A DNA stretch of 32,018 bases, from positions 1 through 32,018 of the forward strand of contig DAIOFH010000035.1 of NCBI GenBank assembly GCA_036745875.1, given 5' to 3'. Positions within the stretch are counted from its first letter, which is position 1, and each line of letters begins with the position of its first letter. Below, piece by piece: positions 66 through 27,396 of the stretch. The notes under the pieces were generated by a model. The model saw only the letters and a program-made list of their open reading frames with translations. It did not search any database and was not told where the DNA came from. This DNA comes from Planctomycetota bacterium (lineage in GTDB: Bacteria; Planctomycetota; SZUA-567). The position numbers and the translations under genes were made by a program.

Positions 66-1052
66 TTATCTGGATATTTCCTTCACTGTCTCCCACCCCT
101 TCGGGGCCAGCTTCCGCCCGGCGGGAGTTTTCGACAGATATCCCTGCTGTATCAAGTACGGCTCATGAACGTTTTCGAGTGTGTCTTCGGTCTCTCCTAC
201 GGTGACCGCGATAGTCTTCAGTCCAACAGGTCCCCCGTCATGCATGGCGAGCGTTTCCAAAATCCGGCGGTCCATCTCGGTAAGCCCGTTTTTATCGACA
301 CCCAGCATCCGCAAAGCCTCTTCGGCGATTTGCATATCGATGGTGCCGTTCCCCTTTACCTCCGCGACATCCCGCGCCCGCGAAAGAAAGCGGTTGGCAA
401 TTCTGGGCGTCCCCCGGCAGCGCGATGCCAATTCCCACGCGCCGTCATCGGCGAGGCCAACTCCGAGAATGCCTGCCGACCGCCTGAGAATAATTTGCAA
501 TTCCTGCGAATTATAATAATCCAGCCGTTCCAGAATGCCGAACCGCGCCCGGAACGGCGCGGTCAACAAACCGTCCCGCGTCGTCGCGCCGATAAGAGTA
601 AATCGGGGGATGGTAAGGTGAATGCTTTTGGCATACAGGCCGGAATCCATCACAATGTCGATTGTCCAGTCTTCCATCGCGGAGTACAGGTATTCTTCAA
701 CAACCGGCGACATACGGTGAATTTCATCGATAAAAAGGATCTGCCCTTCGCCAAGGCTGGTCAACAGTCCGGCCAGATCGGCGGGCCGCTCGAGAGCGGG
801 TCCGGATGTGGCGTGGGATTCAACCCCCATTTCAGCGGCAACGATACCCGCCAGCGTCGTTTTTCCCAGACCGGGAGGGCCGGACAGGAGAATATGATCG
901 AGCGGTTCGCCGCGCTTTTTGGCTGCGGCTATATATATGCCAAGATTGTGGCAGATTTGTTCCTGACCGGGGAAATCGGCAAAACACTTGGGACGCAGTC
1001 GGTTTTCGAAAATCCTGTCGGTAGGCTCCGTATTGAAGGCGTTTTCCGGCAT
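66..1052 (-). CDS. ruvB: Holliday junction branch migration helicase RuvB
   Basis: Translation has Walker A GPPGLGKTT, DEIHR, and the TIPRFTLIGATTRDGLLTAPFRARFGI motif. Start trimmed to MPENAF (ATG at 1050-1052) because the upstream 43 codons of the ORF have no RuvB counterpart. Confidence 0.9.
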   Translation of the reverse strand: MPENAFNTEPTDRIFENRLRPKCFADFPGQEQICHNLGIYIAAAKKRGEPLDHILLSGPPGLGKTTLAGIVAAEMGVESHATSGPALERPADLAGLLTSLGEGQILFIDEIHRMSPVVEEYLYSAMEDWTIDIVMDSGLYAKSIHLTIPRFTLIGATTRDGLLTAPFRARFGILERLDYYNSQELQIILRRSAGILGVGLADDGAWELASRCRGTPRIANRFLSRARDVAEVKGNGTIDMQIAEEALRMLGVDKNGLTEMDRRILETLAMHDGGPVGLKTIAVTVGETEDTLENVHEPYLIQQGYLSKTPAGRKLAPKGWETVKEISR

Positions 1053-1207
1053 CAGAGTGGTTCCAATAATTATGCGGCAAAATTGGCGCCGCAATTCGTC
1101 AGGCGAGGCGCGAAGAATAGGCGTGACCCAAGCGGTTGTAACTGGGAGCAACGAAGGCTGATGGAAAAAGTGCAAGCCCATTTTGCAGCTTAATTACTGG
1201 AACCGCT

Positions 1208-3904
1208 CTAAAATTGGACATCCTTCAAATCGGCATCGGTGATGGGCGCTTCGATCATCGAATCAGAAAGATAATACACATCGGGATAACGACCTTCGGC
1301 CAACTGATCGACAATAGGCGTATACAACGGCGGCGGACGGTCCATGCCCATAAAACTCTTCGGCGAAAGGGTAAAATAAACGCCTCGGTCATCGGCATTG
1401 CGCTTTTGCACATAGCTCACCGAAAGTTCAAAGGTATCAAGGTCCCGGAATATCGAGACTCGATATTGATTGAAACCATGACGGACACCGGTCTGGTTAT
1501 TTCTCCACTCATTCGAATCCCGCCATTCGTAGCCAACCGCCGCTTCGATGGCGTAGTGGCTTGAGTCATTCCATAATTTGGTTCTGACAGCAAAGAAAGT
1601 CTGGTCGGACTGATCGGAATACGGGTAACGCCAGTATCTTCCGCGATAATGATAATGATTGGCGGTAATGCGGAAGAGATTCCCCAGCCGCCAGTCCGAA
1701 GTTAAAATGGCCCGGTTCACCGTATTATCGTGAGTATCATAATCGATACTTGCGCCCAATGTCAAACGAGGCAGTGGGCGATACGTCACTTCGAAATTAA
1801 TCTCAGTGAACTTTCTGTCGTAGTTGATTTTGGCCTGGTCTTGCCTACGCGGATAATAATAGAATCTCATACTGAAATCAAGGATATCACGCGTGGGAAT
1901 AACAGACCCGGATGCGTTTTCATAATAGCGGCGCTGTAGTTTATTTTGGAGTTCAAAACCCAAACGACGCTGACGATAATAAACGTCATATTCGTCCATG
2001 GGATAAATATTACGGTCATAATCCAATTCGGGCTTGGAATTTTCGAGATAACTAACGATTGGCTCGGTGATGAGACGCCATTGATCGTGGGCACCAAACA
2101 CAGTGTAGAATCGGGTGGACAAATCGGCGCCGAAGGGAACGGCATAATTGGTATCACTCCCGCCTCGCCTCGATAGCTGCCCGGAAGTGAAAACATTAGC
2201 CCTGCGGGCCACAAGATCTGCTGGCAGTAACTCGCCGTCAGGAAGAGGCGTTCCAAGAGTCTTGCTATAATATGTTGTTCGCAATCCGACCCATGGCTTG
2301 AAAGTGAGTGCGTTTGCCACGCGAAGAGGCGCTTCGAGGATAGCTTCATTATGCGCGCGGAAAAATGCACCGAAATGGTTCTTGTCCCAGAGACGGCTTT
2401 GTGAAAGACCCCATTCATCAAGTCCCCATATGCCGCCAGCACTCTCGCGCATGTATTTTACCGCATCTTCGTCAAAGTACTTGTCAACAACACCGACCCG
2501 CATGTCATCCTTGAAGAATAACGGCAGGTTGCCAATTTGCAGTGACGGAACAGTTAAGCGTATTTCAGGATAGTACGCGGTTTGCGTCTGCCACTTGTTG
2601 GATAAACGGGATTGGGCGACAAATTCGAGCTCCCAATGCTTGTCGAGTCGACGGACATCAACAAAATTCTGTGGTTCTTTTTCGTTCCAATATTTACTGG
2701 AATCATATTCCTTGAGATAATCGCGGTCATGGTATAACTTAGCTTCGGCACGGACATCCCATAGTTCGTTAAGTTGCTGGTAGTGTTCCCATTCAACGGC
2801 CCAGCGGAAATCCTTCCGGTACAGTGAGGGGGTCCAGTTCTGATTCCACGAATAAATACGGTCTTCATTATCCCCGATGGCACGGTCATAATCTTGGTCT
2901 TTGGAGATGGCGTGCTCATACACACCGTAAAGCTTGAGCTTGCCCTTCGAATCCCACTGACCCATATTATATCCAAACTCAACGCCTACACCGGTCCCGC
3001 GCTCGGTGAAATAGTCAAGGTCGAAAATAACTTTATCCATGCGGAAATAACGATTGGGATTGTCGTTCCTCAGCTTCCATCCCCACTGCGTCCTGGCAAA
3101 ATAACCAAGGTCACTGGTATGCCCCGCCGAGAAGCGCATCCAGGGCCAGTCGTACTGCAGGTCACGAATCAGGTAGGGAAAGTACAGAACCGGCATGTTA
3201 CCTACCCTGACCGTATTGTGGTATGACTCAATCTTTTCATTGCGCCGCAGAAGTGCTGCTGGCGAGTTGAAATACCATTTGGGCCTGGCAAATGAATCAG
3301 GGGTAATCTTCGCATCAATCAATTCAAATGTTTCTGAATCATGAGCGCGTAGCTCCTGGGCATGAACAAACATACGCCTGATAGGCCCGGCATCCTGCGT
3401 GCTGCTGAGACTTTGCGCCCTGGTCATATCGAGTGACGGCGCTTCATCAAGGAAGTCTTTCACCGGCAGCCGAACATTCTTGTTATCCATCTTCAATCGA
3501 ACGTTCTTGGCAAGGCCCTTCCATTCCTGGTAGTTGAAGGATAACTGATCGCAGTAAAACGCATTGCCATTGGGATCGTCGAAAACGACGTCCCCTTCGG
3601 CATAAATTTCCTGGAGCTCTACGTTCAGGACCATATTACGCGCGGAAACGGTGACTTGCGGCAGGACGATGACGGCATAGTTTCTGAGAATGGCGATGCG
3701 ATGGCCCTGTTCGTCTTCTTCCCAGTCCAGCATTCCGCCGCGGAAGTCGATGCCTTCACCAAGAAGACCTGCCATGCCGCCGGCACCGGAACCTGCTTCG
3801 CCGGAATACGCGGATCCGGCGACTATCCCGAAGGAGATTGCCGGAAATAGCAAGAAGAATAAATGTAGCACCACGCTACTTCTTTTTTGCCTGCGCGACG
3901 GCAT
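1208..3904 (-). CDS. lptD: LPS-assembly outer membrane protein LptD (OstA family), approx. 898 aa
   Basis: N-terminal signal peptide (MPSRRQKRSSVVLHLFFLLFPAISFGIVAGSA), OstA-like beta-jellyroll segment, and a very long aromatic-rich beta-barrel region ending in a C-terminal F. Start chosen at the ATG before the signal peptide. Confidence 0.6.
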   Translation of the reverse strand: MPSRRQKRSSVVLHLFFLLFPAISFGIVAGSAYSGEAGSGAGGMAGLLGEGIDFRGGMLDWEEDEQGHRIAILRNYAVIVLPQVTVSARNMVLNVELQEIYAEGDVVFDDPNGNAFYCDQLSFNYQEWKGLAKNVRLKMDNKNVRLPVKDFLDEAPSLDMTRAQSLSSTQDAGPIRRMFVHAQELRAHDSETFELIDAKITPDSFARPKWYFNSPAALLRRNEKIESYHNTVRVGNMPVLYFPYLIRDLQYDWPWMRFSAGHTSDLGYFARTQWGWKLRNDNPNRYFRMDKVIFDLDYFTERGTGVGVEFGYNMGQWDSKGKLKLYGVYEHAISKDQDYDRAIGDNEDRIYSWNQNWTPSLYRKDFRWAVEWEHYQQLNELWDVRAEAKLYHDRDYLKEYDSSKYWNEKEPQNFVDVRRLDKHWELEFVAQSRLSNKWQTQTAYYPEIRLTVPSLQIGNLPLFFKDDMRVGVVDKYFDEDAVKYMRESAGGIWGLDEWGLSQSRLWDKNHFGAFFRAHNEAILEAPLRVANALTFKPWVGLRTTYYSKTLGTPLPDGELLPADLVARRANVFTSGQLSRRGGSDTNYAVPFGADLSTRFYTVFGAHDQWRLITEPIVSYLENSKPELDYDRNIYPMDEYDVYYRQRRLGFELQNKLQRRYYENASGSVIPTRDILDFSMRFYYYPRRQDQAKINYDRKFTEINFEVTYRPLPRLTLGASIDYDTHDNTVNRAILTSDWRLGNLFRITANHYHYRGRYWRYPYSDQSDQTFFAVRTKLWNDSSHYAIEAAVGYEWRDSNEWRNNQTGVRHGFNQYRVSIFRDLDTFELSVSYVQKRNADDRGVYFTLSPKSFMGMDRPPPLYTPIVDQLAEGRYPDVYYLSDSMIEAPITDADLKDVQF

Positions 3905-4085
3905 AGCTAGAACGTTCTCCCCGCATGGTGAAAGAATAAAGTGAAAAACAATCAGTAATAGTGGCAATTACCCATAATTATCGAAACAGGCGAGGCAAAG
4001 TCAAGCGTCGATACGACAAACGAACGAAACCTTCCGGTACAGGTTGCGCCAGCCAAAACAATACTTTTCCATCGCGAATAAAACC

Positions 4086-4763
4086 CTAACAGCCGATTAT
4101 GGAAATAATCTTCCCGATCACTTCACCGGGAGTCATGGAACTGGTGTCAAGATAATGGATCCCCTTGCCGGACATAGCGTTATCGCGAGCCTCCTTCATC
4201 GGGCCCACTTGATAATCCGCTTCATCGCGCTTGACGATATCGTCATATATTGCCGAAAGTTCGACTTCCCGGCCCGCTTCCAGCATCTCCTTGTAGCGGC
4301 GCTCGGCCCTCGCCTCCGCCGAAGCGGTCAGAAAAAACTTCCAGCGCGCCTTCGGCAGCACTACGGTGCAAATATCCCGCCCTTCCATGACGACAGGCCG
4401 TTTTTCCGCAAACCCTTGCTGCAGCCTGACCATATGTGATCGGATCGCCGGCACCCTGGCGGCGAATTTCACATTCTGCGCCACCTCCGGGGAACGTATA
4501 TCCGAGGAGACGTCGGCACCGTCAAGCATGATCCGCGTGCCGCTGGGATCAAACTCAAGCCGTGACGAAAGCGCAACGCCGGCCATGACCTCGGGATCTT
4601 CCAGGTCGACGCCGAGCCGCAGCGCCTTCAGGGCGACGGCACGGTACATCGCCCCGGTATCGACGTAGAGGAACCCCTTCGCCTCGGCGACTTGTTTGGC
4701 AACGCTTGACTTGCCCGCGCCGGCGGGGCCGTCGATGGCCACCGCATCCTGTGAATTTTCCAT
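4086..4763 (-). CDS. cmk: Cytidylate kinase
   Basis: AIDGPAGAGKSSVAK P-loop and the YVDTGAMYR motif typical of Cmk. Start at MENSQ (ATG 4761-4763), 4 nt after the rpiB stop; an alternative ATG at 4773-4775 overlaps rpiB. Confidence 0.85.
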   Translation of the reverse strand: MENSQDAVAIDGPAGAGKSSVAKQVAEAKGFLYVDTGAMYRAVALKALRLGVDLEDPEVMAGVALSSRLEFDPSGTRIMLDGADVSSDIRSPEVAQNVKFAARVPAIRSHMVRLQQGFAEKRPVVMEGRDICTVVLPKARWKFFLTASAEARAERRYKEMLEAGREVELSAIYDDIVKRDEADYQVGPMKEARDNAMSGKGIHYLDTSSMTPGEVIGKIISIIGC

Positions 4764-4767
4764 CCCG

Positions 4768-5220
4768 TTACCCATTCGGATGATCGATGCGGTAGATGCG
4801 GCGAATATGGCGTTCCGCGTTGGAGAACGGGGTATTGAGCCAGGCATCGAGGATGTCGACCTGCGGGTCGACGGACGGCGCGCGGCCGGGCATTACCAAA
4901 ATATTCGAATCATTGTGTTCGCGGGCAAGCTTGGCGAATTCCACAGTCACGCACAAGGCGGCGCGGATGCCGGGAACGCGGTTGGCCACATAGCTCATGC
5001 CAAGGCCGGTGCCGCACAACAACACCGCCTTCGGAAAATCGCCTCGGGCCACGGCTTCCGCGACCGGACGCGCGACCTCGGGATAGTCCCCGGCCCCGTC
5101 CTGGACGGCAGTGTAGTCCGTCACCTCCCACCCCAGATCCTGAAGGTGTTTTTTAAGCTGCTCCTTCACATCGAAGGCAGCATGGTCAGAACCAATGGCA
5201 ATTTTTTTCACTTCGCTCAT
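4768..5220 (-). CDS. rpiB: Ribose-5-phosphate isomerase B
   Basis: 150 aa, MSEVKKIAIGSDHAAFDVKEQL...CGTGLGMSYVANRVPGIRAA, a typical RpiB/LacAB fold. Confidence 0.85.
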   Translation of the reverse strand: MSEVKKIAIGSDHAAFDVKEQLKKHLQDLGWEVTDYTAVQDGAGDYPEVARPVAEAVARGDFPKAVLLCGTGLGMSYVANRVPGIRAALCVTVEFAKLAREHNDSNILVMPGRAPSVDPQVDILDAWLNTPFSNAERHIRRIYRIDHPNG

Positions 5221-5252
5221 GACATCCCCTTTTTACAAAGAAATAAAAACTA

Positions 5253-5268
5253 GAGAAAACGTTTTTGC
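5253..5268. promoter_or_regulatory. 16-bp near-perfect palindrome GAGAAAACGTTTTTGC (CG-centred) between the tsaC stop and rpiB start
   Basis: Central AAAACGTTTT is self-complementary. On the minus strand it sits inside a TTAAAA-N17-TAGTTT sigma-70-like spacer ahead of rpiB. It resembles LacI/PurR-type CG-centred operators. Confidence 0.3.
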
Positions 5269-5271
5269 TTT

Positions 5272-5901
5272 TTAAGTATCGAAGTCCCAAATGGTCGCGA
5301 GGTCGCGTCGCGTGATCGCTCCCTCCCGCAGAATGTCGAATCCCCCATCCTTGTCTGCCAGAACGACAGTGGAGGCTGTGCCAACCGCGCATACGCCACC
5401 GTCAACGAGCAGATCCACAGCGGATCCAAATACATCCGCGGCACCGGCGTCGACAGGCGGCGGCTGCCCGCCCGGATTGGCGCTGGAAGTGGCGACCGCC
5501 CGCCCGAATTTCTTTATGACCGCCAGGGCAAAGCCATGGTCGGGAATTCTCAACCCGAGGGTCCCGCCCTCTTTATCCGGCACGATCAGGGTCAGCGGTC
5601 CAGGCCAGTATTGGTCGGCGAGGTGCGTGGCCCCCCGGGAAAACTGCCCCCCCATGGCCAAACCCATCCGGACATCGGCGATCAAAAGCTGGAACGGCTT
5701 GTCCGCGTCCCGCCCCTTCAGGCTTCGTAGACGCGCCACCGCCTCGCGGTTCGCCGCATCGACGCCAATGCCGTAAACCGTTTCCGTCGGAAAAATGACG
5801 ATTCCGCCGGATGCAAGCGTTTCCACGGCCGCAGTAACGGCATCGGCGAAATCCGCAGCCAACAGCTTCCGTATGTGCGCCATGGTGCCAAGACCTATCA
5901 T
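5272..5901 (-). CDS. tsaC: L-threonylcarbamoyladenylate synthase (Sua5/YrdC/TsaC family)
   Basis: ETVYGIGVDAAN motif and YrdC-fold length. The start ATG at 5899-5901 overlaps the upstream PPIase stop (ATGA at 5898-5901). Confidence 0.8.
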   Translation of the reverse strand: MIGLGTMAHIRKLLAADFADAVTAAVETLASGGIVIFPTETVYGIGVDAANREAVARLRSLKGRDADKPFQLLIADVRMGLAMGGQFSRGATHLADQYWPGPLTLIVPDKEGGTLGLRIPDHGFALAVIKKFGRAVATSSANPGGQPPPVDAGAADVFGSAVDLLVDGGVCAVGTASTVVLADKDGGFDILREGAITRRDLATIWDFDT

Positions 5902-7088
5902 TCCTTGCCAAAGTCGGGAGTATCGGGAAAAACAAGTTTGCCGTCCCTGATGGCCTTTTCCTTGAGCCTGGTCATGAAATCACCGGCGGCGGCGAAAAAG
6001 AACTTGTCTTCGTAATCCGCCAACACCTTTTCCCTGACATCCTCGAACCGGGGCAGCTTCCGCTCCCTGCGCTCTTCGACACGGACTATATGGTATCCCA
6101 TGCCGGTACGGATGGGAGCGGACATCGCGCCGGTCCGCAGCGAAAAAGCCGCATCCTCAAGCTCGCGCATCAACGCCCCACGCTCCACCCAGCGTGACGT
6201 TGTCGAACCGGAAGCAAAGGAACCCGCCACATCGCGGAAATCCTCGCCCATCCGCAAGCGCGTATGAGCCTCCAGGGCCAGCTTCTCCGCCTCAACCCAT
6301 CCTTCCCTGGAATACTCGGCATCGCCGTCGGGTCCTGCCGGAGGGGCGATGAATATCTGGGAGATCCGCACCCGGTCGGGTTCGATATAATCCGCCTGGC
6401 ACTCGGCGTAAAAAACGCGGAGCTGCTCCTCGGTCGGTTTCAGCGAAGCCTGCATCACCTTCCTGAGCGCCAGTTCCGCCCATACCGAACGCTCGACATA
6501 TTCATCCAAGCCCATCCCCGACGCGGCGCGCGCGAGTTCATCCCGGCCAGTAAGCTTTGGAAAAATCAGCGACAGCCCGCGCATATGCTCGTCGAGGCGA
6601 TCGGAAATTTCCTTCTCCGTGACGGCGAGGCCGAGTTTTTCCAGCTCATTTTCCAAAATCGCCTTGCCGACCATCCAGTCGAATGTTTCCCTGCCTTTGC
6701 GCTCCCATAGTTCGCGCATCACGTCACGATCGGTTATTTCCCGGTTTTCAATGCGGGCGAGCGTTTTCACCGAAGACTCAACGGAATCCGGCTCGGCGGA
6801 ATCGCCTGTCGTTCCAGACGCTGCGTACACTGTCGACTGGGTTTGCGAAGAGCCGTAGTAAACCTGCGGCGCGGCCGCGGATGACGAGCCCGTGTCCCTG
6901 ATGCTTGCCGTTCCCCGTTGCGTCGGAAGAGCCACCGTAACGCGGGCATTCGGTTGCACCGGCCGGGAACCGGAGCGGAAAGGGTCCAGGGAAGTCTCGG
7001 GCGGCATCGGCGCATCACCTGCCGCGAGGCGTCCCATAGGCATAAGCAGGAAAAAAAGTGAGAGAAAAAGGGGAAAAATACGCTTCAC
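5898..7088 (-). CDS. Secreted SurA/PpiD-like peptidyl-prolyl cis-trans isomerase (parvulin/PpiC domain)
   Basis: Signal peptide MKRIFPLFLSLFFLLMPMGRLAAG, a Ser/Thr/Gly-rich linker of about 90 aa, a chaperone-like helical region, and a C-terminal parvulin segment (GEDFRDVAGSFASGST...GYHIVRVEE). Its start overlaps the upstream gene stop (ATGA at 7085-7088). Confidence 0.75.
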   Translation of the reverse strand: MKRIFPLFLSLFFLLMPMGRLAAGDAPMPPETSLDPFRSGSRPVQPNARVTVALPTQRGTASIRDTGSSSAAAPQVYYGSSQTQSTVYAASGTTGDSAEPDSVESSVKTLARIENREITDRDVMRELWERKGRETFDWMVGKAILENELEKLGLAVTEKEISDRLDEHMRGLSLIFPKLTGRDELARAASGMGLDEYVERSVWAELALRKVMQASLKPTEEQLRVFYAECQADYIEPDRVRISQIFIAPPAGPDGDAEYSREGWVEAEKLALEAHTRLRMGEDFRDVAGSFASGSTTSRWVERGALMRELEDAAFSLRTGAMSAPIRTGMGYHIVRVEERRERKLPRFEDVREKVLADYEDKFFFAAAGDFMTRLKEKAIRDGKLVFPDTPDFGKE

Positions 7089-8137
7089 TTGTAATTGTCC
7101 CGCAGGGTATTGAAAAAGGCTTCGCCAGCCTTGAAAAAGGCGGTCACGCCCTTTTCCGCCGCATCGCGGATTTCCGTGGCGGTCTCCCGCCAGCCGGACT
7201 CTTCGGCTCCGGGTTGGCCAGAGGCGAATTCTCCCCAGAAGGCGAGGCCCGAAGTGGCGCAGCCTTCTTCCATTTCCAGGTCTTCCGGCGTTTGTACGGC
7301 GCCTGAAAGGATTTTTTCAGGAGCGCCGGAGGAAACCCATTCGGAAAGGTCGAGTATCCTGATAAGCCCCCCGGAATTATTGCGGTTGAGGGCGGAAGCG
7401 AAGCGCTGCCAGCGGCTCTTGTCCCAATCCTTGTCGCGGGAGGCGGCTTCAAGGCCCTGCAAGCGCAGACGGTCGGGGTCGACAATTCCTCCCCATGCCT
7501 TTGATCCCGCGCCGGAGATGCGACCCAACAGCACGTTGACACGGTCCGCGCCCAATTGGAGGCAGGCGGCGCGGTCGGCGGACATCGCGGCATAGCGCCG
7601 CCAATTTTCAAAAGCCCACGACAGCATAAAGGCGGGCGCGCCGACGATGCCGGAAAAATCCTGCACCCAGCGCAAAAATTCCGCCGCCGCGATATTGGTC
7701 GCGTTCCCAAGCCTGACGGAGCCCGCGATCATCGCCAGCAATACCTGCATTTCATCGACGGAAAGTTCGTCCAGCAGACGGGAAGACAACAGTGCGCGCG
7801 GCGCGGCGTTGCCGCCTTTCAGGATCCAGGGCTGCGCGTCGCAGTCGCAGATATGGAGCGTCATTTCAGGCAGGCCCGCCTGTTCGAGGCAGTCCTGCCA
7901 TTTCTTGAACAGCTTCGGGTAGACTTCGGTGCCGACCTTGACCATGGAGGCAAGTTCCACCAGGCGCTCCGCCTTGCCGCCGCCGTGATCGGACATAAGG
8001 TCGATCAATTTTGCAAAGCCGGGGGCTTTTTCAAGCTTCCCCAGGGCATCCTTTTCACCGGGATGACGGTAGAGTTCCGGATTGATTTCCTTGAACGGCA
8101 TGACATTTTCCGTCTTTTTCTTGTGGGACTCGGTCAT
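7085..8137 (-). CDS. M48 (HtpX/Ste24-like) metallopeptidase homolog lacking the HExxH zinc site (probable pseudo-peptidase)
   Basis: M48-like layout (LHICDCDAQPWILKGGNAA; LSVDEMQVLLAMIAGSVRLGN in the place of LSxxELxAVLAHELGH; ENWRRYAAMSADRAA in the place of ExxADRxA), with His/Glu ligands replaced. Start at MTESHKK (ATG 8135-8137), preceded by GGAGGAG. Confidence 0.5.
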   Translation of the reverse strand: MTESHKKKTENVMPFKEINPELYRHPGEKDALGKLEKAPGFAKLIDLMSDHGGGKAERLVELASMVKVGTEVYPKLFKKWQDCLEQAGLPEMTLHICDCDAQPWILKGGNAAPRALLSSRLLDELSVDEMQVLLAMIAGSVRLGNATNIAAAEFLRWVQDFSGIVGAPAFMLSWAFENWRRYAAMSADRAACLQLGADRVNVLLGRISGAGSKAWGGIVDPDRLRLQGLEAASRDKDWDKSRWQRFASALNRNNSGGLIRILDLSEWVSSGAPEKILSGAVQTPEDLEMEEGCATSGLAFWGEFASGQPGAEESGWRETATEIRDAAEKGVTAFFKAGEAFFNTLRDNYK

Positions 8138-8203
8138 TTTCGGTTCTCCTCCAAAGAAAGCATCCCTCACGCGAATCGTGCGCCGACGCATACTGCAACT
8201 GAG

Positions 8204-8962
8204 CTATGCCGGCTTCCATTCGCTCTGCAACAAATCCAGCATGCGCTGGTCGGTCATTTCGTGGCGCATCGGCGTTATGGTCGCGAAGCCGTCCGACAGC
8301 GCCCTGGCGTCGCAGTCGCTGTCGATCGCGGGGTCCAGCCAATCCGCTCCAAGGGTATAGCTGCCCGGCTGGCTGTGGGGAATCATGTTGTCGAGGTAGC
8401 CGCCGCTGCCGTGGCGCGTCAGCTTCAGTCCCTTGATTTTGTCGACAGGGAGCGAAGGCACGTTGAGGTTGAACATCAGGCGGGACTCCGCCCTGGACAA
8501 CTCCAGTAGTTTCTCGGAAGCGAGTCGGGCATAGTGTTTCGCGCCGGCCCAATTGGTGGGAAGGTCGTAATCCACTGAGACGGCCAGTGCGGGAAAACCG
8601 GAAACAAGGCCTTCAAAAGCCGCCCCGACTGTGCCGGAGCAACGCACATTCCTGCCGACGTTGGCGCCAAGGTTGATGCCGCTGACGACCAGGCGGGGCG
8701 GATTGTTTTTCAGCAAGTGCTGAAGGCCGTACTTCACGGCGTCCGCCGGAGTGCCGTCGATGGACCAGCGTTCCTTGACGCCGGGCCAATCGGAATGGCG
8801 CTTTGCGCTCATGGGGTCGGAGATGGTGATGGACATGCCCACACCCGACCGGTTCTTGGACGGAGCCGAAATATACAGGTCGTCCAGCCCGGACAACGCC
8901 TGCGCCAACTCACGCAGGCCTTCCGCGTCCACGCCGTCGTCGTTTGCCAATAATATGCTCAT
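8204..8962 (-). CDS. surE: 5'/3'-nucleotidase SurE
   Basis: MSILLANDDGVDAEGLRELAQAL... with the N-terminal DDG motif and SurE length (252 aa). Confidence 0.85.
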   Translation of the reverse strand: MSILLANDDGVDAEGLRELAQALSGLDDLYISAPSKNRSGVGMSITISDPMSAKRHSDWPGVKERWSIDGTPADAVKYGLQHLLKNNPPRLVVSGINLGANVGRNVRCSGTVGAAFEGLVSGFPALAVSVDYDLPTNWAGAKHYARLASEKLLELSRAESRLMFNLNVPSLPVDKIKGLKLTRHGSGGYLDNMIPHSQPGSYTLGADWLDPAIDSDCDARALSDGFATITPMRHEMTDQRMLDLLQSEWKPA

Positions 8963-21599: not shown

Positions 21600-21623
21600 A
21601 GGATTAATGGCATATTAATCCTC
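21599..21623. other. Perfect 10-bp AT-rich inverted repeat GAGGATTAAT-ggcat-ATTAATCCTC at the MATE/rtcB convergent junction
   Basis: Read directly from the sequence. The rtcB stop codon lies inside the stem, and gaggatta is tandemly repeated immediately upstream (21591-21606). Confidence 0.4.
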
Positions 21624-22814
21624 CGGCCGTTCCCCTCCCTCAGCCATACGAACCAGTTTGGGCTCGAACTTCGCAACGATTTCCACCAGGTCTTCCTGTT
21701 CGCGCATGACTTCGTCGATATCCTTGTAGGCCATCGGACATTCGTCCAGACCGGCGGAAAGGAGGGTAATGCCGCGTTCGGCGAGGAAGTCCAGCATCTG
21801 CCGCTTGGTGAAGGTGTTTTTCGCCGCGTTGCGGCTCATGCGCCGACCCGCCCCGTGGGAGGCGGACAACAGGGACTTTTCGTTTCCCTTGCCCCTGACC
21901 ACGTAGCCCGGCGTCCCCATTGAACCGGGGATGATTCCAAGCGTACCCAGGGCGGCGGGCGTCGCGCCTTTTCTATGGACAACCACTTCCCGCCCGCCAT
22001 GCGTTTCCTTCCAGGCGAAATTGTGGTGGTTTTCCACATCGGCCAAAACGTCGACGCCCAGGTTCCTGGCGATCTTCTTGTGGATCAGCTGGTGGTTGGC
22101 GGACGAATACTCGCCCATGAGTTCCATGGCCCGCCAGTATTCCCGCCCTTCCTGCGAGTCCAGGTCGAACCAGGCGAGGTACGACTGCTCCTTCGACAGT
22201 TCGGGATGGAGCTTTGCCGCCAGCTTCGAATAATGCTGCGCGATCGCGCCGCCAGTCCCCCGTGAACCGGAGTGCGACAGCAGGGAAAGATATTTTCCTT
22301 CCGCCAATTCGCCCGCATGGCGGCCGGCCTTCTCCGGCCGCGACCACAGTGCGGCAGGTTCGTCCAGGGTCAGGATGCCGAATTCGACAAAATGGTTCCC
22401 CGACCCCGAGGTGCCGAGTTGCGCCCATGCCTTGTCCTTGTTGGCCCGCGTGACCGGCGAGACGTCCCAGTCCATATCCATGACCGGGTGTTCGTTGCGC
22501 TTTTTCATTTTCGAGCCTACGCCAAAGACCGTTTCCCGCAGCAAGGCATTGCGCAGGCGTTCAGCCTGGCCGGTCAGGGCGGAGACGGGCAGGTCCAGGA
22601 CAGTCATTTTCATCCGGCAGGCGATATCCATGCCGACTGCATAGGGGATAACCGCGTCCTCGGTGGCCAATACGCCGCCGATGGGCAGGCCGTAGCCCTG
22701 ATGCGCATCAGGCATCAACGCCGCCGCCACGGAGACGGGGAGGGAACAGGCGTTGCGCATCTGCTTCAGGGCGCCTTCTTCGATATCCGTACCCCACTGG
22801 TTATAGTCGATCAT
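21615..22814 (-). CDS. rtcB: RNA-splicing ligase RtcB (3'-phosphate/5'-hydroxyl RNA ligase)
   Basis: 399 aa; MPDAHQGYGLPIGGV, HNFA, GSRG and other RtcB motifs. AAGGA SD. Starts 4 nt after the rtcA stop. Confidence 0.9.
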   Translation of the reverse strand: MIDYNQWGTDIEEGALKQMRNACSLPVSVAAALMPDAHQGYGLPIGGVLATEDAVIPYAVGMDIACRMKMTVLDLPVSALTGQAERLRNALLRETVFGVGSKMKKRNEHPVMDMDWDVSPVTRANKDKAWAQLGTSGSGNHFVEFGILTLDEPAALWSRPEKAGRHAGELAEGKYLSLLSHSGSRGTGGAIAQHYSKLAAKLHPELSKEQSYLAWFDLDSQEGREYWRAMELMGEYSSANHQLIHKKIARNLGVDVLADVENHHNFAWKETHGGREVVVHRKGATPAALGTLGIIPGSMGTPGYVVRGKGNEKSLLSASHGAGRRMSRNAAKNTFTKRQMLDFLAERGITLLSAGLDECPMAYKDIDEVMREQEDLVEIVAKFEPKLVRMAEGGERPED

Positions 22815-22818
22815 TGTC

Positions 22819-24837
22819 TCATCCTTTATCGCGGCAGGTCACGGTGTATACGGAGTAGTCGTCCGTCTGGTGGTCGAATTTGACCGGCAGGAACGACTCG
22901 ATGACCTGCATGTTGGTTTTACTGTGTTCCGTCAGGGGAAGGGTGGAAAACTCCCCGCCACCCGCCAGGGCGAGCGGCAACAATATCTGGTCGGCGGAAT
23001 GCTTGCCCAGGACGGCCGTCGACGCGGCATACAGCCTTGCGGCGCTTCCGGCGGCGTCAGCCACTTTTTCAGCCCTGAGCGCCTTTTCGCCAAAGGCGGT
23101 GAATACTTCGCTGTGGTCGCCTTTCTCGTCCCGCGCGTCCACCATGACGACATTGCCGGGACCGGCGGACTCGACCTGCAGGACGCGGCATTGGCTGTCC
23201 GACAGGCCGAGGCGACGGCGCAGGGCCTCCGCCTCCCGCTTGGCGACGGATTCCGGCAGCCCGCTGTAGACGCAACAGCCGCTCAATTTCACTTCTCCGC
23301 CGCGTTTCAGCAAAGACAACGGCGACAATTTCCCGCCCTGCACGCGGACTTTTACCTTGCCGCCCCCGGCGGGAAAAAAGCCGTGACGCGCAAGGGCAAC
23401 ATCCACTGCCGCCCCCATGCGCCGCAGCAGCGGCAAAAAGGTGCGTTCGAGGAAATCGTAGGGCGGAGCGAGCGGGTTGTGGGTGCCGCCTTCCAGGGTC
23501 AGGTTCGACTCCCCATCCGCAGACAGCAAGACAGGCAGGACGGTTTGCAAAACCAAAGTCGCGGACCCGGCCGTGCCGATGGCGAACGAATAGTTGCCGT
23601 GCCGGATACGTCCGGGTTTGAACTCGATTTCCGTCGAACCGGGGAAGTCGCCGTCGACCCGGGCGCCGCATATTTCCTCCGCCGCCTTGACAGCGGTCAT
23701 ATGCTGCCGCATAAGTCCCGGCTTGCGCCGCCTGGCTCGGATTTTATCGATGTGCAGCGCAGTTCCCGTGATCATCGACAGGGAAAGGGAGGTGCGCAAC
23801 ACCTGCCCTCCCCCTTCGCCAAGCGATCCATCTATATAAACCATCGGATACTCCTCCCGCCTGGTGATGGTCGCCGCCTCGGAAGCCTTCTTCGCTTCGA
23901 CCACTTTGTTCATGATCGCCTTGATGTCGCCGGGGAGTATTATGTCCCTGACGCCGAAGGAGGTGACCGAATACCCGTACTGCACGGCCTTGGCGCGAAG
24001 CTCCCGTTCCAGATCTCCGGCCAGGGAGTCCTTGTCCGAAAGCAGGCTGTCGAGTTCGACGCCGCCGACCTTTGCCCGCAGCAACAGTTGCGCTTCGCGG
24101 TACAGTGCCTGCTTCGCGTCCACCGATTCGTCCAGGCTTTTCATGACGTCGACGACCCTGCAGGTCAACGAAACGTTCAGCCTCAGCGCCAGCTTGTCGG
24201 CGGTCAACATGTCCTGCCCGCCGATGTCCAGGGTAATTTCCCGCATATCGACGACGCTGGACTGGTTGCCGTCGACAGCCTTCCAATAGACGTATTTCCC
24301 CGGTTCGAGCAAGCCGACGAATTCGCCGTTGTGGTAATACGACGCCTTGCTGCCGGGTCGGACCAGGACGACGAGAAAATGCGCAGCAAACGCCGGGTTC
24401 ATCATGATGCTGTCCAGGTCGGCGTGGACGAATCGGCCATGCTCGTCCCGGATGTCGTATACTTCATAGCGGATATCGACAAGCCCTTTCCACCAGGCCC
24501 AGCGTCCCGGCTCAAGGATACCGCAAAAGACGCCGTCCCGCCAGACCAGCGCCCGCTGATTGGAGTCAAGATCGAGGAGCGCCACTTCCTCTTCGGGCAA
24601 AAGACCGGACTTGACCATGGCGGGAAGCTGTTCGTGCCTGAACCACGGGTCGAGGCGGGAGAAGACCTCCATGGTATACTCCCCCATGGGGTCGAAAATC
24701 CATTTCTCGTCCTTTTCAAGCAGGCCCTGGAATTTGCCGTTTCTCCACAACAGGCCGCGCTGATAATCACGGACGCGAAATTTCCTGAGTCCGGCGAAAT
24801 AGGTGGCAACGTCGCCGATGAATTTGAGGGTGCCCAT
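22819..24837 (-). CDS. rtcA: SPFH/band-7 domain :: RNA 3'-terminal phosphate cyclase RtcA fusion protein (672 aa)
   Basis: The C-terminal 341 aa align along their length to RtcA (YIDGSLGEGGGQVLRTSLSLSMITG, RQHMTAVKAAEEICGA, LVLQTVLPVLL, DQILLPLALAGGGEF, LTEHSKTN). The N-terminal 331 aa form an SPFH domain (VVDMREITLDIGGQDMLTADKLALRLNVSLTCRVVD...GYSVTSFGVRDIILPGDIKAIMNK). A single ORF with no stop between them. ATG at 24835-24837 with AGGAGA SD; the ORF-track M1 is a TTG. Confidence 0.8.
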   Translation of the reverse strand: MGTLKFIGDVATYFAGLRKFRVRDYQRGLLWRNGKFQGLLEKDEKWIFDPMGEYTMEVFSRLDPWFRHEQLPAMVKSGLLPEEEVALLDLDSNQRALVWRDGVFCGILEPGRWAWWKGLVDIRYEVYDIRDEHGRFVHADLDSIMMNPAFAAHFLVVLVRPGSKASYYHNGEFVGLLEPGKYVYWKAVDGNQSSVVDMREITLDIGGQDMLTADKLALRLNVSLTCRVVDVMKSLDESVDAKQALYREAQLLLRAKVGGVELDSLLSDKDSLAGDLERELRAKAVQYGYSVTSFGVRDIILPGDIKAIMNKVVEAKKASEAATITRREEYPMVYIDGSLGEGGGQVLRTSLSLSMITGTALHIDKIRARRRKPGLMRQHMTAVKAAEEICGARVDGDFPGSTEIEFKPGRIRHGNYSFAIGTAGSATLVLQTVLPVLLSADGESNLTLEGGTHNPLAPPYDFLERTFLPLLRRMGAAVDVALARHGFFPAGGGKVKVRVQGGKLSPLSLLKRGGEVKLSGCCVYSGLPESVAKREAEALRRRLGLSDSQCRVLQVESAGPGNVVMVDARDEKGDHSEVFTAFGEKALRAEKVADAAGSAARLYAASTAVLGKHSADQILLPLALAGGGEFSTLPLTEHSKTNMQVIESFLPVKFDHQTDDYSVYTVTCRDKG

Positions 24838-25163
24838 TGTTTTCTCCTTCTCTATCTTTTCTTCGTATGGTTGTTCTGTAAAAATTGGCTTCGCAAAGAC
24901 CGGACTACGCACGTCCAAGCATTACTCAACGGGGAAGCGGCGGAGAAAAGCGGAGCGGACTGGATTTCGCCGGCATCGGGAATACGCTTCAGCCCGACGA
25001 CGCCCTGCCTTTCCTTTCCCCGTTTGCCCGTACCGTTTCCGCAGGCCGGTTTTACTTTTCCTCGGGACGGGATGCGGATTTCGCCGAATTCCCGTCTTTA
25101 GAGGACAGACGCTCGTTTTCCTTTCTTCCCGAAGCCAAAACTGGTGGAAAGAGGCAACCCTTT

Positions 25164-25236
25164 CCCAAGGAGTGGGAGTTGAACCCACGACCCGCTGATC
25201 CATAGTCAGCTGCTCTACCCACTGAGCTATCCGAGA
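25164..25236 (-). ncRNA. tRNA-like element 1: canonical D, anticodon-like and T arms; weakened acceptor stem; loop CUAUGGA; no CCA
   Basis: Minus-strand read UCUCGGA-UA-GCUC-AGUGGGUA-GAGC-A-GCUGA-CUAUGGA-UCAGC-GGGUC-GUGGG-UUCAACU-CCCAC-UCCUUGG-G. The acceptor pairs only 5 of 7 positions (internal UU/CU mismatch). The would-be anticodon AUG is not a natural bacterial anticodon. Confidence 0.5.
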
Positions 25237-25308
25237 TGGTGGACAATACGGGAGTCGAACCCGCCGGGAGTCGTCTCGGACCCGCCGCCATACCGTCATG
25301 GATTGCCC
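25237..25308 (-). ncRNA. tRNA-like element 2: perfect acceptor stem, T arm and encoded CCA, but a non-canonical core
   Basis: Minus-strand read GGGCAAU-CCAU-GACGGU-AUGG-CGGC-GGGUC-CGAGAC-GACUC-CCG-GCGGG-UUCGACU-CCCGU-AUUGUCC-A-CCA. The D-like stem starts at position 8 and the would-be anticodon loop is 6 nt. Abuts element 1 head to tail. Confidence 0.5.
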
Positions 25309-25414: not shown

Positions 25415-25429
25415 ACAACAGGCTTGCCA
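25415..25429 (-). promoter_or_regulatory. Candidate sigma-54 (-24/-12) promoter for the tRNA-like elements and rtcAB
   Basis: The minus strand reads TGGCAAgcctgTTGTT, which has the exact TGGCAC-N5-TTGC spacing, GG conserved, and GC replaced by GT. It lies about 105 nt upstream of tRNA-like element 2 and is oriented toward rtcA/rtcB. RtcR has a GAFTGA motif, implying a sigma-54 target nearby. Confidence 0.3.
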
Positions 25430-25615: not shown

Positions 25616-27214
25616 ATGGCAAAACTGAAAAAGCACCGGCCGCTTGTCGTCATCGGCATGTTCGGAACAAACCTCGACGCTTCGCCGCAGGGTCGCAGCG
25701 AACGCTGGGAGCGCTGGCGGCCAAGCCTGTCCATTTGCCAGCACGATGATCTCATAGTCGACCGCTTCGAGTTGTTGCACGGCCGCGGCCATGACAAAAG
25801 CGCCGCCCTCCTCGCGGGCGACATGGAAACGGTCTCGCCGGAGACGAAAGTCAACCTGCACGAAATAGCCATGCACGATCCCTGGGATTTCGAGGAAGTC
25901 TATTCCGCGTTGTACGACTTTGCCCACGGCTATGCCTGGAGGCACGAGACTGAGGATTATCTTGTCCACATCACCACCGGCACGCATGTGGCGCAGATCT
26001 GCCTTTTCCTCCTGGCCGAATCGAGGCATTTTCCGGCGAAGCTTCTGCAAACCAGCCCGCCGAAACGGCGGCGAAGTCAAAACGCCGGTTCCTTCGCCGT
26101 CATCGACCTTGACCTGTCCAAATACGACCGCCTCGCCAGCCGCTTCGACAAAACGACTGAAAACGACCTCGCGTTCCTCAAGTCCGGGATCGACACCAGG
26201 AACAAGCGCTTCAACCGGCTTATCGAGGAAATAGAGAAAGTTGCGGTGCGTTCGCCCGAGCCGCTCCTGCTGATCGGGCCGACGGGCGCGGGCAAATCCC
26301 AACTTGGCAAAAAAATATACGAGCTCAAGAAAAACCGGCGGCTCGTCAGCGGGCCGTTTGTGGAAGTCAATTGCGCCACCCTCCGGGGCGACCAGGCGAT
26401 GGCCGCCCTGTTCGGCCATGCCAAGGGCGCATTCACCGGCGCGATCGAAAGCCGGGACGGCCTACTCAGGAAAGCGGACAAGGGCATGTTGTTCCTGGAC
26501 GAGATCGGCGAACTCGGCCTTGACGAACAGGCGATGCTGCTCCGGGCAGTGGAGGAAAAACGGTTTTTGCCGCTCGGGTCCGACAGCGAGGTGTTTTCCG
26601 ATTTCCAGCTCATCGCGGGAACCAACCGCGACCTGGCGCAGGAGGCCGAGGCGGGAATGTTTCGCAGCGACCTTCTCGCCCGCATCGATGTATGGACCTT
26701 CCGCCTGCCGGGATTGGCCGAGCGGCGGGAGGACATCGCGCCAAACCTTGACTACGAACTGGAGCGCGCGTCGGGGCAACTCGGGCGCAGGATCACCATG
26801 AACGCGGAGGCGAGAAAGGCATTTCTGGAGTTCGCCGATTCGGACCGGGCGACCTGGGCGGCCAATTTCCGCGACTTGGCGGCGGCGGTGACGCGGATGG
26901 CCACCCTCGCCGACGGCGGAAGGATCGCCCTTGCCGAATGCCGGACGGAGATAGGCCGCCTGGAACAGCAGTGGCGGTCGGGCAAGAGCGAAAGCGTTCC
27001 CGCCTTCCCCCATCTGGACCTTTTCGACGCGGTGCAGCTGGAAAAAGTGCTGGAGATATGCAGGCGTTGCGAAAGCTTGTCCGGTGCCGGCCGCGTGCTT
27101 TTCCAGACGTCGCGGCAAAAACGCAAACAAGCCAACGACGCCGACCGCCTGCGGAAATACCTGGCCAAATTCGGCCTTTCCTGGAAAGACATAATTAAAA
27201 CTGAAAATCAATAA
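25616..27214 (+). CDS. rtcR: Sigma-54 dependent transcriptional regulator RtcR (CARF domain, AAA+ domain, HTH)
   Basis: 532 aa. It is collinear with E. coli RtcR as recalled from memory: N-terminal CARF region with RWxRWRP, Walker A GPTGAGKS, GAFTGA in HAKGAFTGA, and C-terminal DADRLRKYLAKFGLSW. Confidence 0.9.
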   Translation: MAKLKKHRPLVVIGMFGTNLDASPQGRSERWERWRPSLSICQHDDLIVDRFELLHGRGHDKSAALLAGDMETVSPETKVNLHEIAMHDPWDFEEVYSALYDFAHGYAWRHETEDYLVHITTGTHVAQICLFLLAESRHFPAKLLQTSPPKRRRSQNAGSFAVIDLDLSKYDRLASRFDKTTENDLAFLKSGIDTRNKRFNRLIEEIEKVAVRSPEPLLLIGPTGAGKSQLGKKIYELKKNRRLVSGPFVEVNCATLRGDQAMAALFGHAKGAFTGAIESRDGLLRKADKGMLFLDEIGELGLDEQAMLLRAVEEKRFLPLGSDSEVFSDFQLIAGTNRDLAQEAEAGMFRSDLLARIDVWTFRLPGLAERREDIAPNLDYELERASGQLGRRITMNAEARKAFLEFADSDRATWAANFRDLAAAVTRMATLADGGRIALAECRTEIGRLEQQWRSGKSESVPAFPHLDLFDAVQLEKVLEICRRCESLSGAGRVLFQTSRQKRKQANDADRLRKYLAKFGLSWKDIIKTENQ

Positions 27215-27320: not shown

Positions 27321-27396
27321 GCGGGCGTAGCTCAGTGGCTAGAGCACCACCTTGCCAAGGTGGGGGTCGAGGGTTCGAATCTCTTCGCCCGCTCCA
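27321..27396 (+). tRNA. tRNA-Gly (anticodon GCC)
   Basis: GCGGGCG-TA-GCTC-AGTGGCTA-GAGC-A-CCACC-TTGCCAA-GGTGG-GGGTC-GAGGG-TTCGAAT-CTCTT-CGCCCGC-T-CCA; a canonical cloverleaf with CCA encoded. Confidence 0.9.

Follow-up and report, generated by a model that had tools for sequence, protein, structure and literature searches.

The window, as the whole stretch of 32,018 nucleotides analysed here is called, carries an operon in which rtcR is followed, divergently, by a sigma-54-like promoter, two tRNA-like RNAs, an SPFH gene, rtcA, and rtcB, and in which the SPFH gene and rtcA form one open reading frame (ORF). The features of the locus are listed below.

25616..27214, plus strand: rtcR, the divergent activator, with an RtcR/CARF-type N-domain and a sigma-54 AAA+ domain (Pfam RtcR, E 3e-79; Sigma54_activat, E 1e-45)
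25415..25429, minus strand: sigma-54-type promoter-like motif TGGCAAGCCTGTTGT (TGGCA-N6-TTGT), upstream of the tRNA-like genes
25237..25308, minus strand: tRNA-like element 1, 72 nt (cloverleaf MFE fold, moderate confidence)
25164..25236, minus strand: tRNA-like element 2, of the b7a-tRNA kind (Rfam tRNA, 53.2 bits; ARAGORN His(atg))
25142..25165, minus strand: conserved hairpin GGAAAGGG-UUGC-CUCUUUCC, then ACCA, directly 3' of element 2 (from folding)
23851..24837, minus strand: SPFH part of the fused ORF, residues 1-329
23845..23856, minus strand: deletion junction, breakpoint 23855 (DNA alignment, exact count)
22819..23844, minus strand: RtcA part of the fused ORF, residues 332-672 (NCBIfam equivalog; Pfam RTC and RTC_insert)
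21615..22814, minus strand: rtcB, RNA 3'-phosphate/2',3'-cyclic phosphate to 5'-OH ligase, 399 aa (Pfam RtcB, E 5.5e-90)

The positions of rtcB and rtcR bear out the rtcA-rtcB-rtcR locus in which the original prediction had placed the fused ORF, and an NfeD partner was, as had been stated, absent from the operon, in which rtcR on one side and a convergently oriented MatE gene on the other enclose no ORFs except the fused one and rtcB. The start of rtcB lies 4 nt past the stop of the fused ORF. The order of rtcA then rtcB, to which attention had been drawn, was present but is not exceptional, being the norm in the closest relatives and in most of the related loci that contain rtcA. What had been overlooked was the pair of tRNA-like genes upstream, which defines the type of the system.

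The promoter motif and the tRNA-like RNAs

TGGCA-N6-TTGT matched twice in the window, against 0.5 matches expected by chance. The position of the promoter-like motif was conserved in two related loci (L001 and L003), and TGGCA-N6-TTG[CT] was found at the equivalent place in 10 of 16 rtcR-type loci. The motif may function as a sigma-54 promoter, and a divergent RtcR gene together with a sigma-54 promoter motif, both recognised from the sequence, is the combination by which an RtcR-regulated operon is identified.

In element 1, GGGCAAU and AUUGUCC pair as an acceptor stem of 7 bp, CGGGUUCGACUCCCG forms the T-arm, and the 3'-terminal ACCA is encoded. The stability of its MFE cloverleaf was no greater than that of shuffled sequence, and the Rfam match was a weak one of the tmRNA/tRNA-like kind (15.5 bits); its ortholog in L003/L004 was called a tRNA by ARAGORN, and the acceptor stem covaried in L003 (GCGAA/UUCGC). 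Element 2 forms a full cloverleaf with two mismatched acceptor pairs and the anticodon AUG, which is odd in a bacterium. The hairpin that follows it was retained in L003 by compensatory changes (GAGAAG/CUUCUC) and may mark a site of processing or mimic an acceptor. Among related loci with enough flank, 59 of 76 carried tRNA-like genes on the same strand 5' of the SPFH gene.

The fused ORF and its two parts

The fused ORF lies on the minus strand and runs without interruption through 672 codons, beginning with ATG at 24837 and ending with the stop codon 22821-22819, with a Shine-Dalgarno sequence (AAGGAG) 8 nt 5' of the ATG. A start at TTG 24918, which would give a product of 699 aa, was rejected because the ATG is the start in homologues. 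The exact 672-aa protein was recorded from NCBI, ENA, and Logan. Searches with Pfam matched Band_7 (PF01145) to residues 159-329 (E 8e-24; 85.1 bits, cut-off 23.6), RTC to residues 340-655 (E 7e-80), and RTC_insert to residues 512-598. Translation, Pfam, and NCBIfam thus agree with the claim that a single ORF carries an SPFH fold and a full-length RtcA; the profile comparison that had been proposed for the N-terminal half gave the PF01145 match above its cut-off, and neither half failed the models of its family, both matching above cut-off. The assignment of residues 1-331 to an SPFH domain was correct as to the presence of the SPFH fold, while residues 1-158 lie outside Band_7 proper and the C-terminal tail is missing.

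The RtcA part matched the NCBIfam equivalog for RNA 3'-phosphate cyclase (NF003246) with 419 bits against a cut-off of 352, residues 332-666 covering positions 3-336 of the 342 in the profile. It begins at the ancestral ATG (23844-23842), 6 nt 3' of AGGAG, and is colinear with two standalone RtcA proteins of 341 aa (P0270 and P0272) in the same 90% identity cluster. The motifs GEGGGQxLR and RxxKPGLxRQH of the N-terminal region were both present. In a pairwise alignment, the His of TEHSKTN was aligned with the His of SCHLQTN in E. coli RtcA (the SCH(L/Q) motif), which we take to be the adenylylated His309 of that enzyme; the original prediction, which had read LTEHSKTN as retaining the conserved His, was accurate on this point. 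The RtcA part is predicted to be a complete RNA 3'-phosphate cyclase. A further member of the cluster (P0271, 40 aa) was rejected as an additional witness, its sequence being unrelated.

In the SPFH part, an N-terminal helix and three five-stranded beta modules are followed by the alpha/beta core of SPFH and then by the C-terminal helix, of which the first 27 residues remain. The alpha/beta fold of the SPFH family is thus present in the fused ORF, and residues 1-158 are two extra five-stranded beta modules. The part is incomplete, the 55-residue C-terminal tail of the family being absent; of the C-terminal coiled coil and terminal segment, from which the oligomeric cage gets its wall and its cap, the 27 helix residues are all that is left. 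The columns of the tail were at least 90% conserved across 115 members of the SPFH family, and the tail was contiguous with the SPFH part in all 83 of the other loci. It resembles the C-terminal helix of stomatin, residues 330-366 of P0001 being aligned with human and P. horikoshii stomatin. The stomatin segment homologous to the lost tail is needed for oligomerisation. Since the segment that aligns with this helix and oligomerisation segment is lost, the tail-less SPFH moiety is probably impaired in the formation of a closed ring or cage. The loss of the tail therefore argues against, not for, a well-formed cage bearing RtcA.

No membrane anchor, either a transmembrane helix or a hairpin, was predicted, and the SPFH part contained no hydrophobic 19-mer; the Kyte-Doolittle mean was 0.41 at the N-terminus, and the maximum for the whole ORF (1.63) lay inside the RtcA core. 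Neither stops nor frameshifts were found over the 329 codons of the SPFH part. The dN/dS of this part against the relatives was 0.08-0.10, as compared to 0.094 for a pair of unfused relatives, so that no relaxation of selection was seen in omega, although a recent deletion cannot be dated in this way, and one that arose long after the divergence (dS about 0.5) would hardly register in the test.

The deletion junction and the search for other fusions

The junction reads ...CGG G|A|GG AGT ATC CG... and encodes E-E-Y-P. The sequence of the window passes from ...ACCAGGCGGG directly into AGGAGTATCCGATGG, and the peptide across the SPFH-RtcA junction is ...ITRREEYPMVYIDGSLGEGGGQVLR. Relative to three related loci (L086, L087, and L001), exactly 180 nt are missing, which comprise the codons of the 55-residue tail, the stop, and the first part of the spacer. 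The former Shine-Dalgarno sequence of rtcA (AGGAG, 23855-23851) is retained inside the junction. The breakpoints share a microhomology of 1 nt and have no flanking repeats. A deletion mediated by repeats, between the GGAG of the R-E-E codons and the GGAG of the rtcA Shine-Dalgarno sequence, was considered and rejected, the overlap in L086/L087 being 1 nt.

In the four relatives with 83-88% DNA identity (L086, L087, L088, and L001), the SPFH gene is unfused and has its tail and stop; two of them (L086 and L087; 86-88% nucleotide identity) have the same SPFH-rtcA-rtcB-MatE synteny as the window. The sequence AGGAGTATCCG-ATG of rtcA was present in the three of the four relatives that extend that far; in L001 it reads AGGAGTATCTT-ATG and is followed by an ORF of only 7 codons before the contig ends. 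The unfused SPFH gene, which was seen in the four relatives and 79 distant loci, encodes ~384 aa and is followed by a stop and, where the contig extends, a spacer of 18-19 nt. The closest genomes among the matches listed were Planctomycetota MAGs with 60% SPFH identity.

The search for SPFH-RtcA fusions in other genomes, which had been recommended, was carried out, and no recurrence with intact domains was found. None of the 80 loci listed from species-representative genomes had the fusion, and no other full-length fusion was detected in 5.8 billion clusters by a word-indexed search, in 1.84 billion representatives by an exhaustive phmmer search, or among the best 120 members of the SPFH family. 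The back-translated peptide of the fused junction had no match in JGI metagenome contigs. RtcA homologues of 420-550 aa were rejected as distant SPFH fusions, none of them having Band_7. The sole other protein found with both Band_7 and RTC was P0010, in which the junction lies inside both domain cores; at its locus, rtcR is fragmented and the region of the promoter and tRNAs is missing. With both cores truncated and the locus decayed, P0010 was rejected as a true second fusion and regarded as a decay product.

Known systems and the origin of the fusion

That SPFH scaffolds are new to Rtc systems, as the original prediction implied in knowing of no cyclase tethered to one, did not hold up, since a Band-7/SPFH protein with a cognate tRNA-like RNA next to RtcB was already described in 2016 (Burroughs and Aravind 2016, NAR 44:8525, as cited in bioRxiv 10.1101/312249, PMC13404743). 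Like those operons, the window has an SPFH gene in an RtcB operon, a tRNA-like RNA just 5' of it, and an RtcR sigma-54 regulator, and the SPFH proteins of those operons are, as here, major vault protein-like, with beta repeats, an SPFH shoulder, and a helix. The SPFH-RtcB neighbourhood also occurred in L003, L031, L043, L046, L061, L063, L077, and L080. Unlike all other members found, the window has lost the SPFH tail and has SPFH and rtcA in one ORF. In the literature, no experiment was found that shows, for any member, SPFH protein, tRNA-like RNA, and repair enzymes physically associated in one complex. The rsr-yrlBA-rtcBA operon of Salmonella is, like that of the window, controlled by RtcR and has a scaffold or ring protein and tandem tRNA-like RNAs before the repair enzymes, but its scaffold is TROVE/Ro60, its RNAs are YrlA and YrlB, and rtcB stands before rtcA (PMC7790460). 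The YrlA model matched the window weakly (18.9 bits, gathering score 69). In P. aeruginosa, the SPFH protein PaFlo8 (PA14_60630) is encoded amid rtcR, rtcA, and rtcB; it is a separate gene in a cultivable host, is likened to the window by gene neighbourhood alone, and had no phenotype in the assays of the study that described it (PMC13086221).

As compared to the cages of stomatin, HflK/C, QmcA, prohibitin, erlin, and flotillin, the SPFH part of the window lacks a predicted transmembrane or hairpin anchor and an NfeD partner; it also has two extra N-terminal beta modules, and the C-terminal helix/cap segment is deleted. The rtcBA-rtcR locus of E. coli shares with the window RtcA, RtcB, and a divergent RtcR with a sigma-54 promoter, and the RtcA of the window was 43% identical over the alignment to an E. 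coli RtcA variant. Unlike the window, the E. coli locus has neither a scaffold gene nor a tRNA-like RNA, and its order of rtcA and rtcB is reversed. Many Rtc operons, of which that of E. coli is an example, function without an SPFH gene.

The fused gene is real: the deletion and its exact ends were established by the DNA alignment and the count of missing bases, no relative shares it, and a second, independent assembly contains it. The fusion is not a conserved or evolved architecture, and because it is a one-strain deletion inside an operon type already described, it does not amount to a novel repair machine. We consider it probable that a strain-private, in-frame deletion of 180 nt inside an ordinary RtcR-controlled operon of Band-7/SPFH, tRNA-like RNA, RtcA, and RtcB made the fusion. 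The ancestor would have had an SPFH gene (~384 aa), a stop, a spacer of 18 nt with the ribosome-binding site of rtcA, and rtcA in the same frame. A single deletion of 180 nt at 1 nt of microhomology would have removed the last 55 SPFH codons, the stop, and the first part of the spacer, leaving a tail-less SPFH protein, Glu-Glu-Tyr-Pro, and full-length RtcA. Upon RNA damage, RtcR would activate the sigma-54 promoter, both tRNA-like RNAs would be transcribed together with the fused gene and rtcB, and the fused ORF would be translated into a protein of ~74 kDa. Since AGGAG-N6-ATG is intact inside the fused ORF, internal initiation probably still yields RtcA as a free protein of 37 kDa, and the cyclase and ligase functions would then persist. 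Most likely, the allele arose recently and is either neutral to mildly deleterious or a scaffold hypomorph, and not an adaptive architecture.

The fusion would be adaptive if fixing RtcA on the SPFH scaffold allowed it to cyclise RNA 3'-phosphate ends on the spot, while the complex of scaffold and tRNA-like RNA holds them, and so to supply RtcB ligation and RtcR signalling (the RtcR/RtcA signalling logic is taken from PMC7790460), which we regard as unlikely. The two genes are joined in frame with both moieties intact as folds, the SPFH part shows no weakening of purifying selection (omega about 0.09), SPFH and rtcA were neighbours in 16 of the 83 other loci examined, as expected of partners, and RtcA is known in fusions to other repair partners, such as the RtcA-RtcB fusion protein P0092. 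Gene fusions often mark physical interaction (the 'Rosetta stone' principle). However, the fusion was found in one strain only, with the four relatives at 83-88% nucleotide identity and all other loci unfused, and it sacrifices the invariant 55-residue tail, which a selected design would be expected to retain; besides, the linker is two residues long and the junction is the old ribosome-binding site.

A deletion introduced by library preparation or assembly, or a rare variant in a strain whose genes are truly separate, appears less probable still. The sequence stems from a 113.8-kb contig of metagenomic origin, and every relative is unfused, but a Logan contig from the run SRR4051759, made by an independent assembler though possibly from the same data that the genome was binned from, was 100% identical over 3320 nt spanning the junction. 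With the junction recovered a second time in this way, it is unlikely to be an artefact of the assembler; a loss of 180 nt without flanking repeats, at 1 nt of microhomology, is also unlike the error that would come from repeat or k-mer collapse. In look-ups of close relatives, no undeleted allele at 100% identity was found, the unfused ones being 83-88% identical.

An early stage of decay, in which SPFH function is lost, the ORF is harmlessly translated, rtcA is read from its own start, and the locus is heading to a plain rtcAB, would agree with the loss of the invariant tail, the retained Shine-Dalgarno sequence and ATG of rtcA, the clearly decayed SPFH/rtcA junction of L002, and the many Rtc operons that work without an SPFH gene, as in E. 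coli (PMC7790460), but is very improbable in view of 329 codons without further lesions at an omega of about 0.09 and of tRNA-like genes and a promoter that are intact and conserved.

On the reading of a strain-private deletion, the fusion itself carries little weight: it is a deletion scar of one strain and should not be counted as a novel compartmentalised repair system in genome scans. It is nevertheless a natural experiment in which RtcA replaces an invariant SPFH tail while close relatives are normal, and it could reveal what the tail and the scaffold contribute. That an in-frame fusion is tolerated is weak evidence for the SPFH protein and RtcA sharing one complex. A scaffolded or compartmentalised repair assembly is an existing hypothesis for the unfused systems, and to it, as to that part of the original prediction, the fusion lends this weak 'Rosetta stone' support. 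There is a slim chance that the allele is fixed and functional, with the tail-less SPFH protein still able to assemble on the tRNA-like RNAs, whether into an open ring or into a lower oligomer, and covalently attached RtcA standing where the cage wall would continue. If so, it would be a natural 'Rosetta stone' for the scaffold and cyclase acting in one complex and a handle for pulling down the complex that an MVP-like SPFH protein and tRNA-like RNA would form in bacteria. The larger question is the role of the vault-protein-like SPFH scaffold and the tRNA-like RNAs in Rtc repair, and for this the locus is a clean example of an SPFH/tRNA-like RNA Rtc system, in which two tRNA-like RNAs stand in tandem behind a conserved sigma-54 promoter motif.

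The undecayed state of the SPFH part, with the same omega as the unfused pair, runs counter to reading the junction as a deletion scar, and a functional, selected fusion would look alike. An in-frame deletion combined with a stop-free spacer is an outcome expected in one case in three or more rarely, and it could hint at selection for read-through.

The fused gene and its operon

The original prediction described a single 672-codon open reading frame (ORF) joining SPFH and RtcA in an rtcA-rtcB-rtcR locus. The ORF, domain, motif and neighbouring-gene evidence confirmed this description; the ORF is on the minus strand, with a good AAGGAG Shine-Dalgarno sequence 8 nt 5' of its ATG. The features of the locus were as follows.

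Features of the rtc locus (minus is the operon strand)
21615-22814, minus: rtcB, start 4 nt past the fused-ORF stop
24837 (ATG) to 22819 (stop), minus: fused SPFH-RtcA ORF, 672 codons
Fused-ORF residues 159-329: Band_7 (Pfam, E 8e-24)
Fused-ORF residues 340-655: RTC (Pfam, E 7e-80)
Fused ORF, RtcA part: RTC_insert (Pfam)
25142-25165, minus: conserved hairpin, then ACCA (fold, conservation)
25164-25236, minus: tRNA-like gene (Rfam tRNA, 53 bits)
25237-25308, minus: 72-nt cloverleaf ending in ACCA, 7-bp acceptor stem
25415-25429, minus: sigma-54-type motif TGGCAAGCCTGTTGT (motif match)
25616-27214, plus: rtcR, divergent from the operon

The Band_7 match bore out the SPFH identity of the N-terminal half. 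The predicted full RtcA with its catalytic motifs was likewise found: residues 332-666 exceeded the curated cut-off of the NCBIfam RtcA equivalog, the GEGGGQxLR and KPGLxRQH motifs are both kept, and the LTEHSKTN histidine was aligned to its conserved counterpart in E. coli RtcA, taken to be the adenylylated His309. The E. coli RtcA entry P0104 (375 aa) carries an internal 37-residue tandem duplication relative to the RtcA of the window. No homology supports an antisense 743-codon open frame spanning the whole fused gene (22870-25101, plus strand), which is most probably a shadow ORF produced by the G+C-rich coding region. An ordinary tRNA-Gly(GCC) lies ca. 100 nt downstream of rtcR (27321-27396, plus strand; Rfam 66.8 bits).

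Origin of the fusion by deletion

The fusion, a new variant private to this strain, arose from one in-frame deletion. P0001, the closest SPFH homologue (384 aa, 88% identical), is standalone and runs 55 residues past ...ITRREE (TAALRHQLN...KLATLI). Most columns of this tail were at least 90% conserved across the SPFH family, and the tail was contiguous with the SPFH part in 83 of the 83 other loci fetched. At 90% identity, the 672-aa protein clustered with standalone RtcA proteins of 341 aa, whose contigs (L086, L087 and L088) were 86-88% identical to the window in DNA and had the SPFH-rtcA-rtcB-MatE synteny in common with it. In these contigs, as far as they extend, the tail is followed by a TAA stop, a spacer of 18-19 nt with AGGAG and the rtcA ATG. 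Base-by-base alignment with the relatives showed that the window sequence jumps from ...ACCAGGCGGG to AGGAGTATCCGATGG, with exactly 180 nt missing at the junction and a breakpoint overlap of one base. Since the spacer is in frame and contains no stops, a single ORF results, within which rtcA keeps its ribosome-binding site and its start codon unchanged (23855-23842). In L001, the closest SPFH relative, AAAGGAGTATCTTATGG is kept after the SPFH stop (3210-3258), and the sequence then departs from rtcA (ATGGATGATTTTCCAAGCGGTTAA) shortly before the contig end; this divergence could reflect either an unreliable contig end or the presence of another gene downstream.

The exact 672-aa protein was recorded from NCBI, ENA and Logan. 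It is unlikely that the junction is a minority variant or library artefact. Run SRR4051759, from which the binned genome may itself derive, was assembled separately by Logan into a contig that matches the window at 100% identity across 3320 nt, junction included; and assembly collapse, we infer, does not typically remove 180 nt cleanly where no repeats flank the loss.

As a conserved architecture, the fusion did not hold up, and no other true fusion was found in other genomes. None of the 80 species-representative genome loci among the matches listed carried an SPFH-RtcA fusion, and where rtcA lay 3' of SPFH in the genome loci listed, a gap always followed the tail. When the whole fusion was queried against 5.8 billion clusters in a word-indexed search, only single-domain proteins and P0010 came back, and exhaustive phmmer over 1.84 billion representatives gave no protein matching both halves. 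The best 120 family members in the SPFH-only search were all standalone, no Band_7 domain was found in long RtcA homologues, and the back-translated junction had no match in JGI metagenome contigs.

P0010 (469 aa), a second Band_7 and RTC ORF at 5650-7410 of L002 (JGI 3300056972, Ga0568837_0004479), was ruled out as a true fusion because its junction lies inside the domain cores (Band_7 cut at profile position 110 of 176, RTC at position 12) and its locus is decayed. Its SPFH part lacks the first ca. 120 residues and the second half, and its RtcA the first ca. 10 residues. The decay is evident from rtcR, which is present only as fragments overlapping the P0010 ORF start, and from the absence of a promoter or tRNA region, no tRNA-like gene being found in L002; rtcB is apparently intact. 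RtcA was also seen joined to RtcB in P0092 (755 aa, Candidatus Magnetomorum sp. HK-1) and to a phosphoribosyltransferase domain (PF00156) in P0102 (570 aa).

Expected consequences for the scaffold and the cyclase

In alignments with human and archaeal stomatin, the lost tail matched the C-terminal helix. Stomatin oligomerisation needs the segment just after this helix, and the matching parts of HflK/C and stomatin form the cage wall and cap. In the fused protein, 27 helix residues are left, followed by Tyr-Pro and RtcA. Given the lost tail, the 27 residues kept and the role of this segment in stomatin, ring or cage closure is expected from the sequence to be impaired. Cyclase function should be preserved in the fusion, and initiation at the internal start that was retained probably also yields active free RtcA. 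The dN/dS of the SPFH part (0.08-0.10) equalled that between unfused relatives, indicating no decay (RtcA, 0.04-0.07; RtcB, 0.03-0.05); this would be expected if the deletion is recent and equally if the scaffold moiety is still useful, and dN/dS does not distinguish the two. The original interpretation was partly supported. The fusion does not represent a new class of repair machine; its value is as a potential natural experiment and as a faint indication that SPFH and RtcA are in contact.

A known type of SPFH-tRNA-Rtc system

An SPFH scaffold in an Rtc system had been thought undescribed, but earlier descriptions exist. Burroughs and Aravind (2016), as summarised in bioRxiv 10.1101/312249, described loci in which RtcB adjoins a Band-7/SPFH protein and a 'band-7-associated tRNA', and proposed that these two act as scaffold and cofactor in the manner of Ro60 and Y RNA; the window locus, with SPFH, tRNA-like RNA and RtcB, is of the same type. 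These proteins are named 'MVP homologs' in PMC13404743, which has them sharing operons with ncRNAs and RtcB, and P. aeruginosa PaFlo8, as in the window, is an SPFH gene within an rtc locus (PMC13086221). The association of SPFH scaffolds with Rtc enzymes is therefore already known, and the locus is a typical example of this known, experimentally unexplored system; the literature searched contained no organism in which a function for the SPFH protein or its tRNA-like RNAs had been put to the test. In such an operon, oligomerised RtcR would activate the sigma-54 promoter (signalling logic from PMC7790460), RtcA would convert 3'-phosphate ends to cyclic phosphate, and RtcB would join such ends (3'-phosphate or cyclic) to 5'-OH ends.

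The earlier reading overlooked four features between rtcR and the fused ORF, all on the operon strand: the sigma-54-type motif, two tRNA-like elements and the hairpin. The motif was found in 10 of 16 rtcR-type loci, at the same position in L001 and L003. The acceptor stem of the cloverleaf covaries in L003, where ARAGORN calls the orthologous element a tRNA, and the tRNA-like gene has an unusual AUG anticodon and two mismatched acceptor pairs. Single tRNA-like genes 5' of the SPFH gene in rtcR-type loci (surveyed in L001, L007, L021, L031, L063, L065, L076, L079, L080 and window 25164-25236) had highly diverse anticodons, and in many of them (aat, aag, acc, agc, atg, att) position 34 is an A, an unusual base there for bacteria. 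These varied anticodons suggest that tRNA shape, rather than decoding, matters.

In many Planctomycetota, the same SPFH family gene lies directly 3' of a very dense tRNA array, with 15-27 genes packed onto the same strand within about 3.4 kb (L079, L008, L011-L014, L024, L025, L028, L029, L060, L064, L073 and L084), and a span of 4 kb showed no RtcA, RtcB or RtcR. The array of Adhaeretor mobilis HG15A2 (L079; NZ_CP036263.1:3050794-3059723, locus positions 1-8930) has 26 tRNA genes, the last being 'His(atg)' as in the window, and is followed by the SPFH gene and two RlaP genes (PF10127, 'RNA repair pathway DNA polymerase beta family'). A gap of ca. 650-800 nt between tRNA-His and tRNA-Trp recurs at the same place in many arrays, and in L024 the gap within the array holds an ORF (1855-2667, plus strand) that encodes an HNH endonuclease domain (E 6e-13). 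P0002, P0003 and P0277 (528-532 aa) have an extra pair of N-terminal beta modules (five versus three); the number of modules thus varies in the SPFH family, as does that of the repeats in major vault protein.
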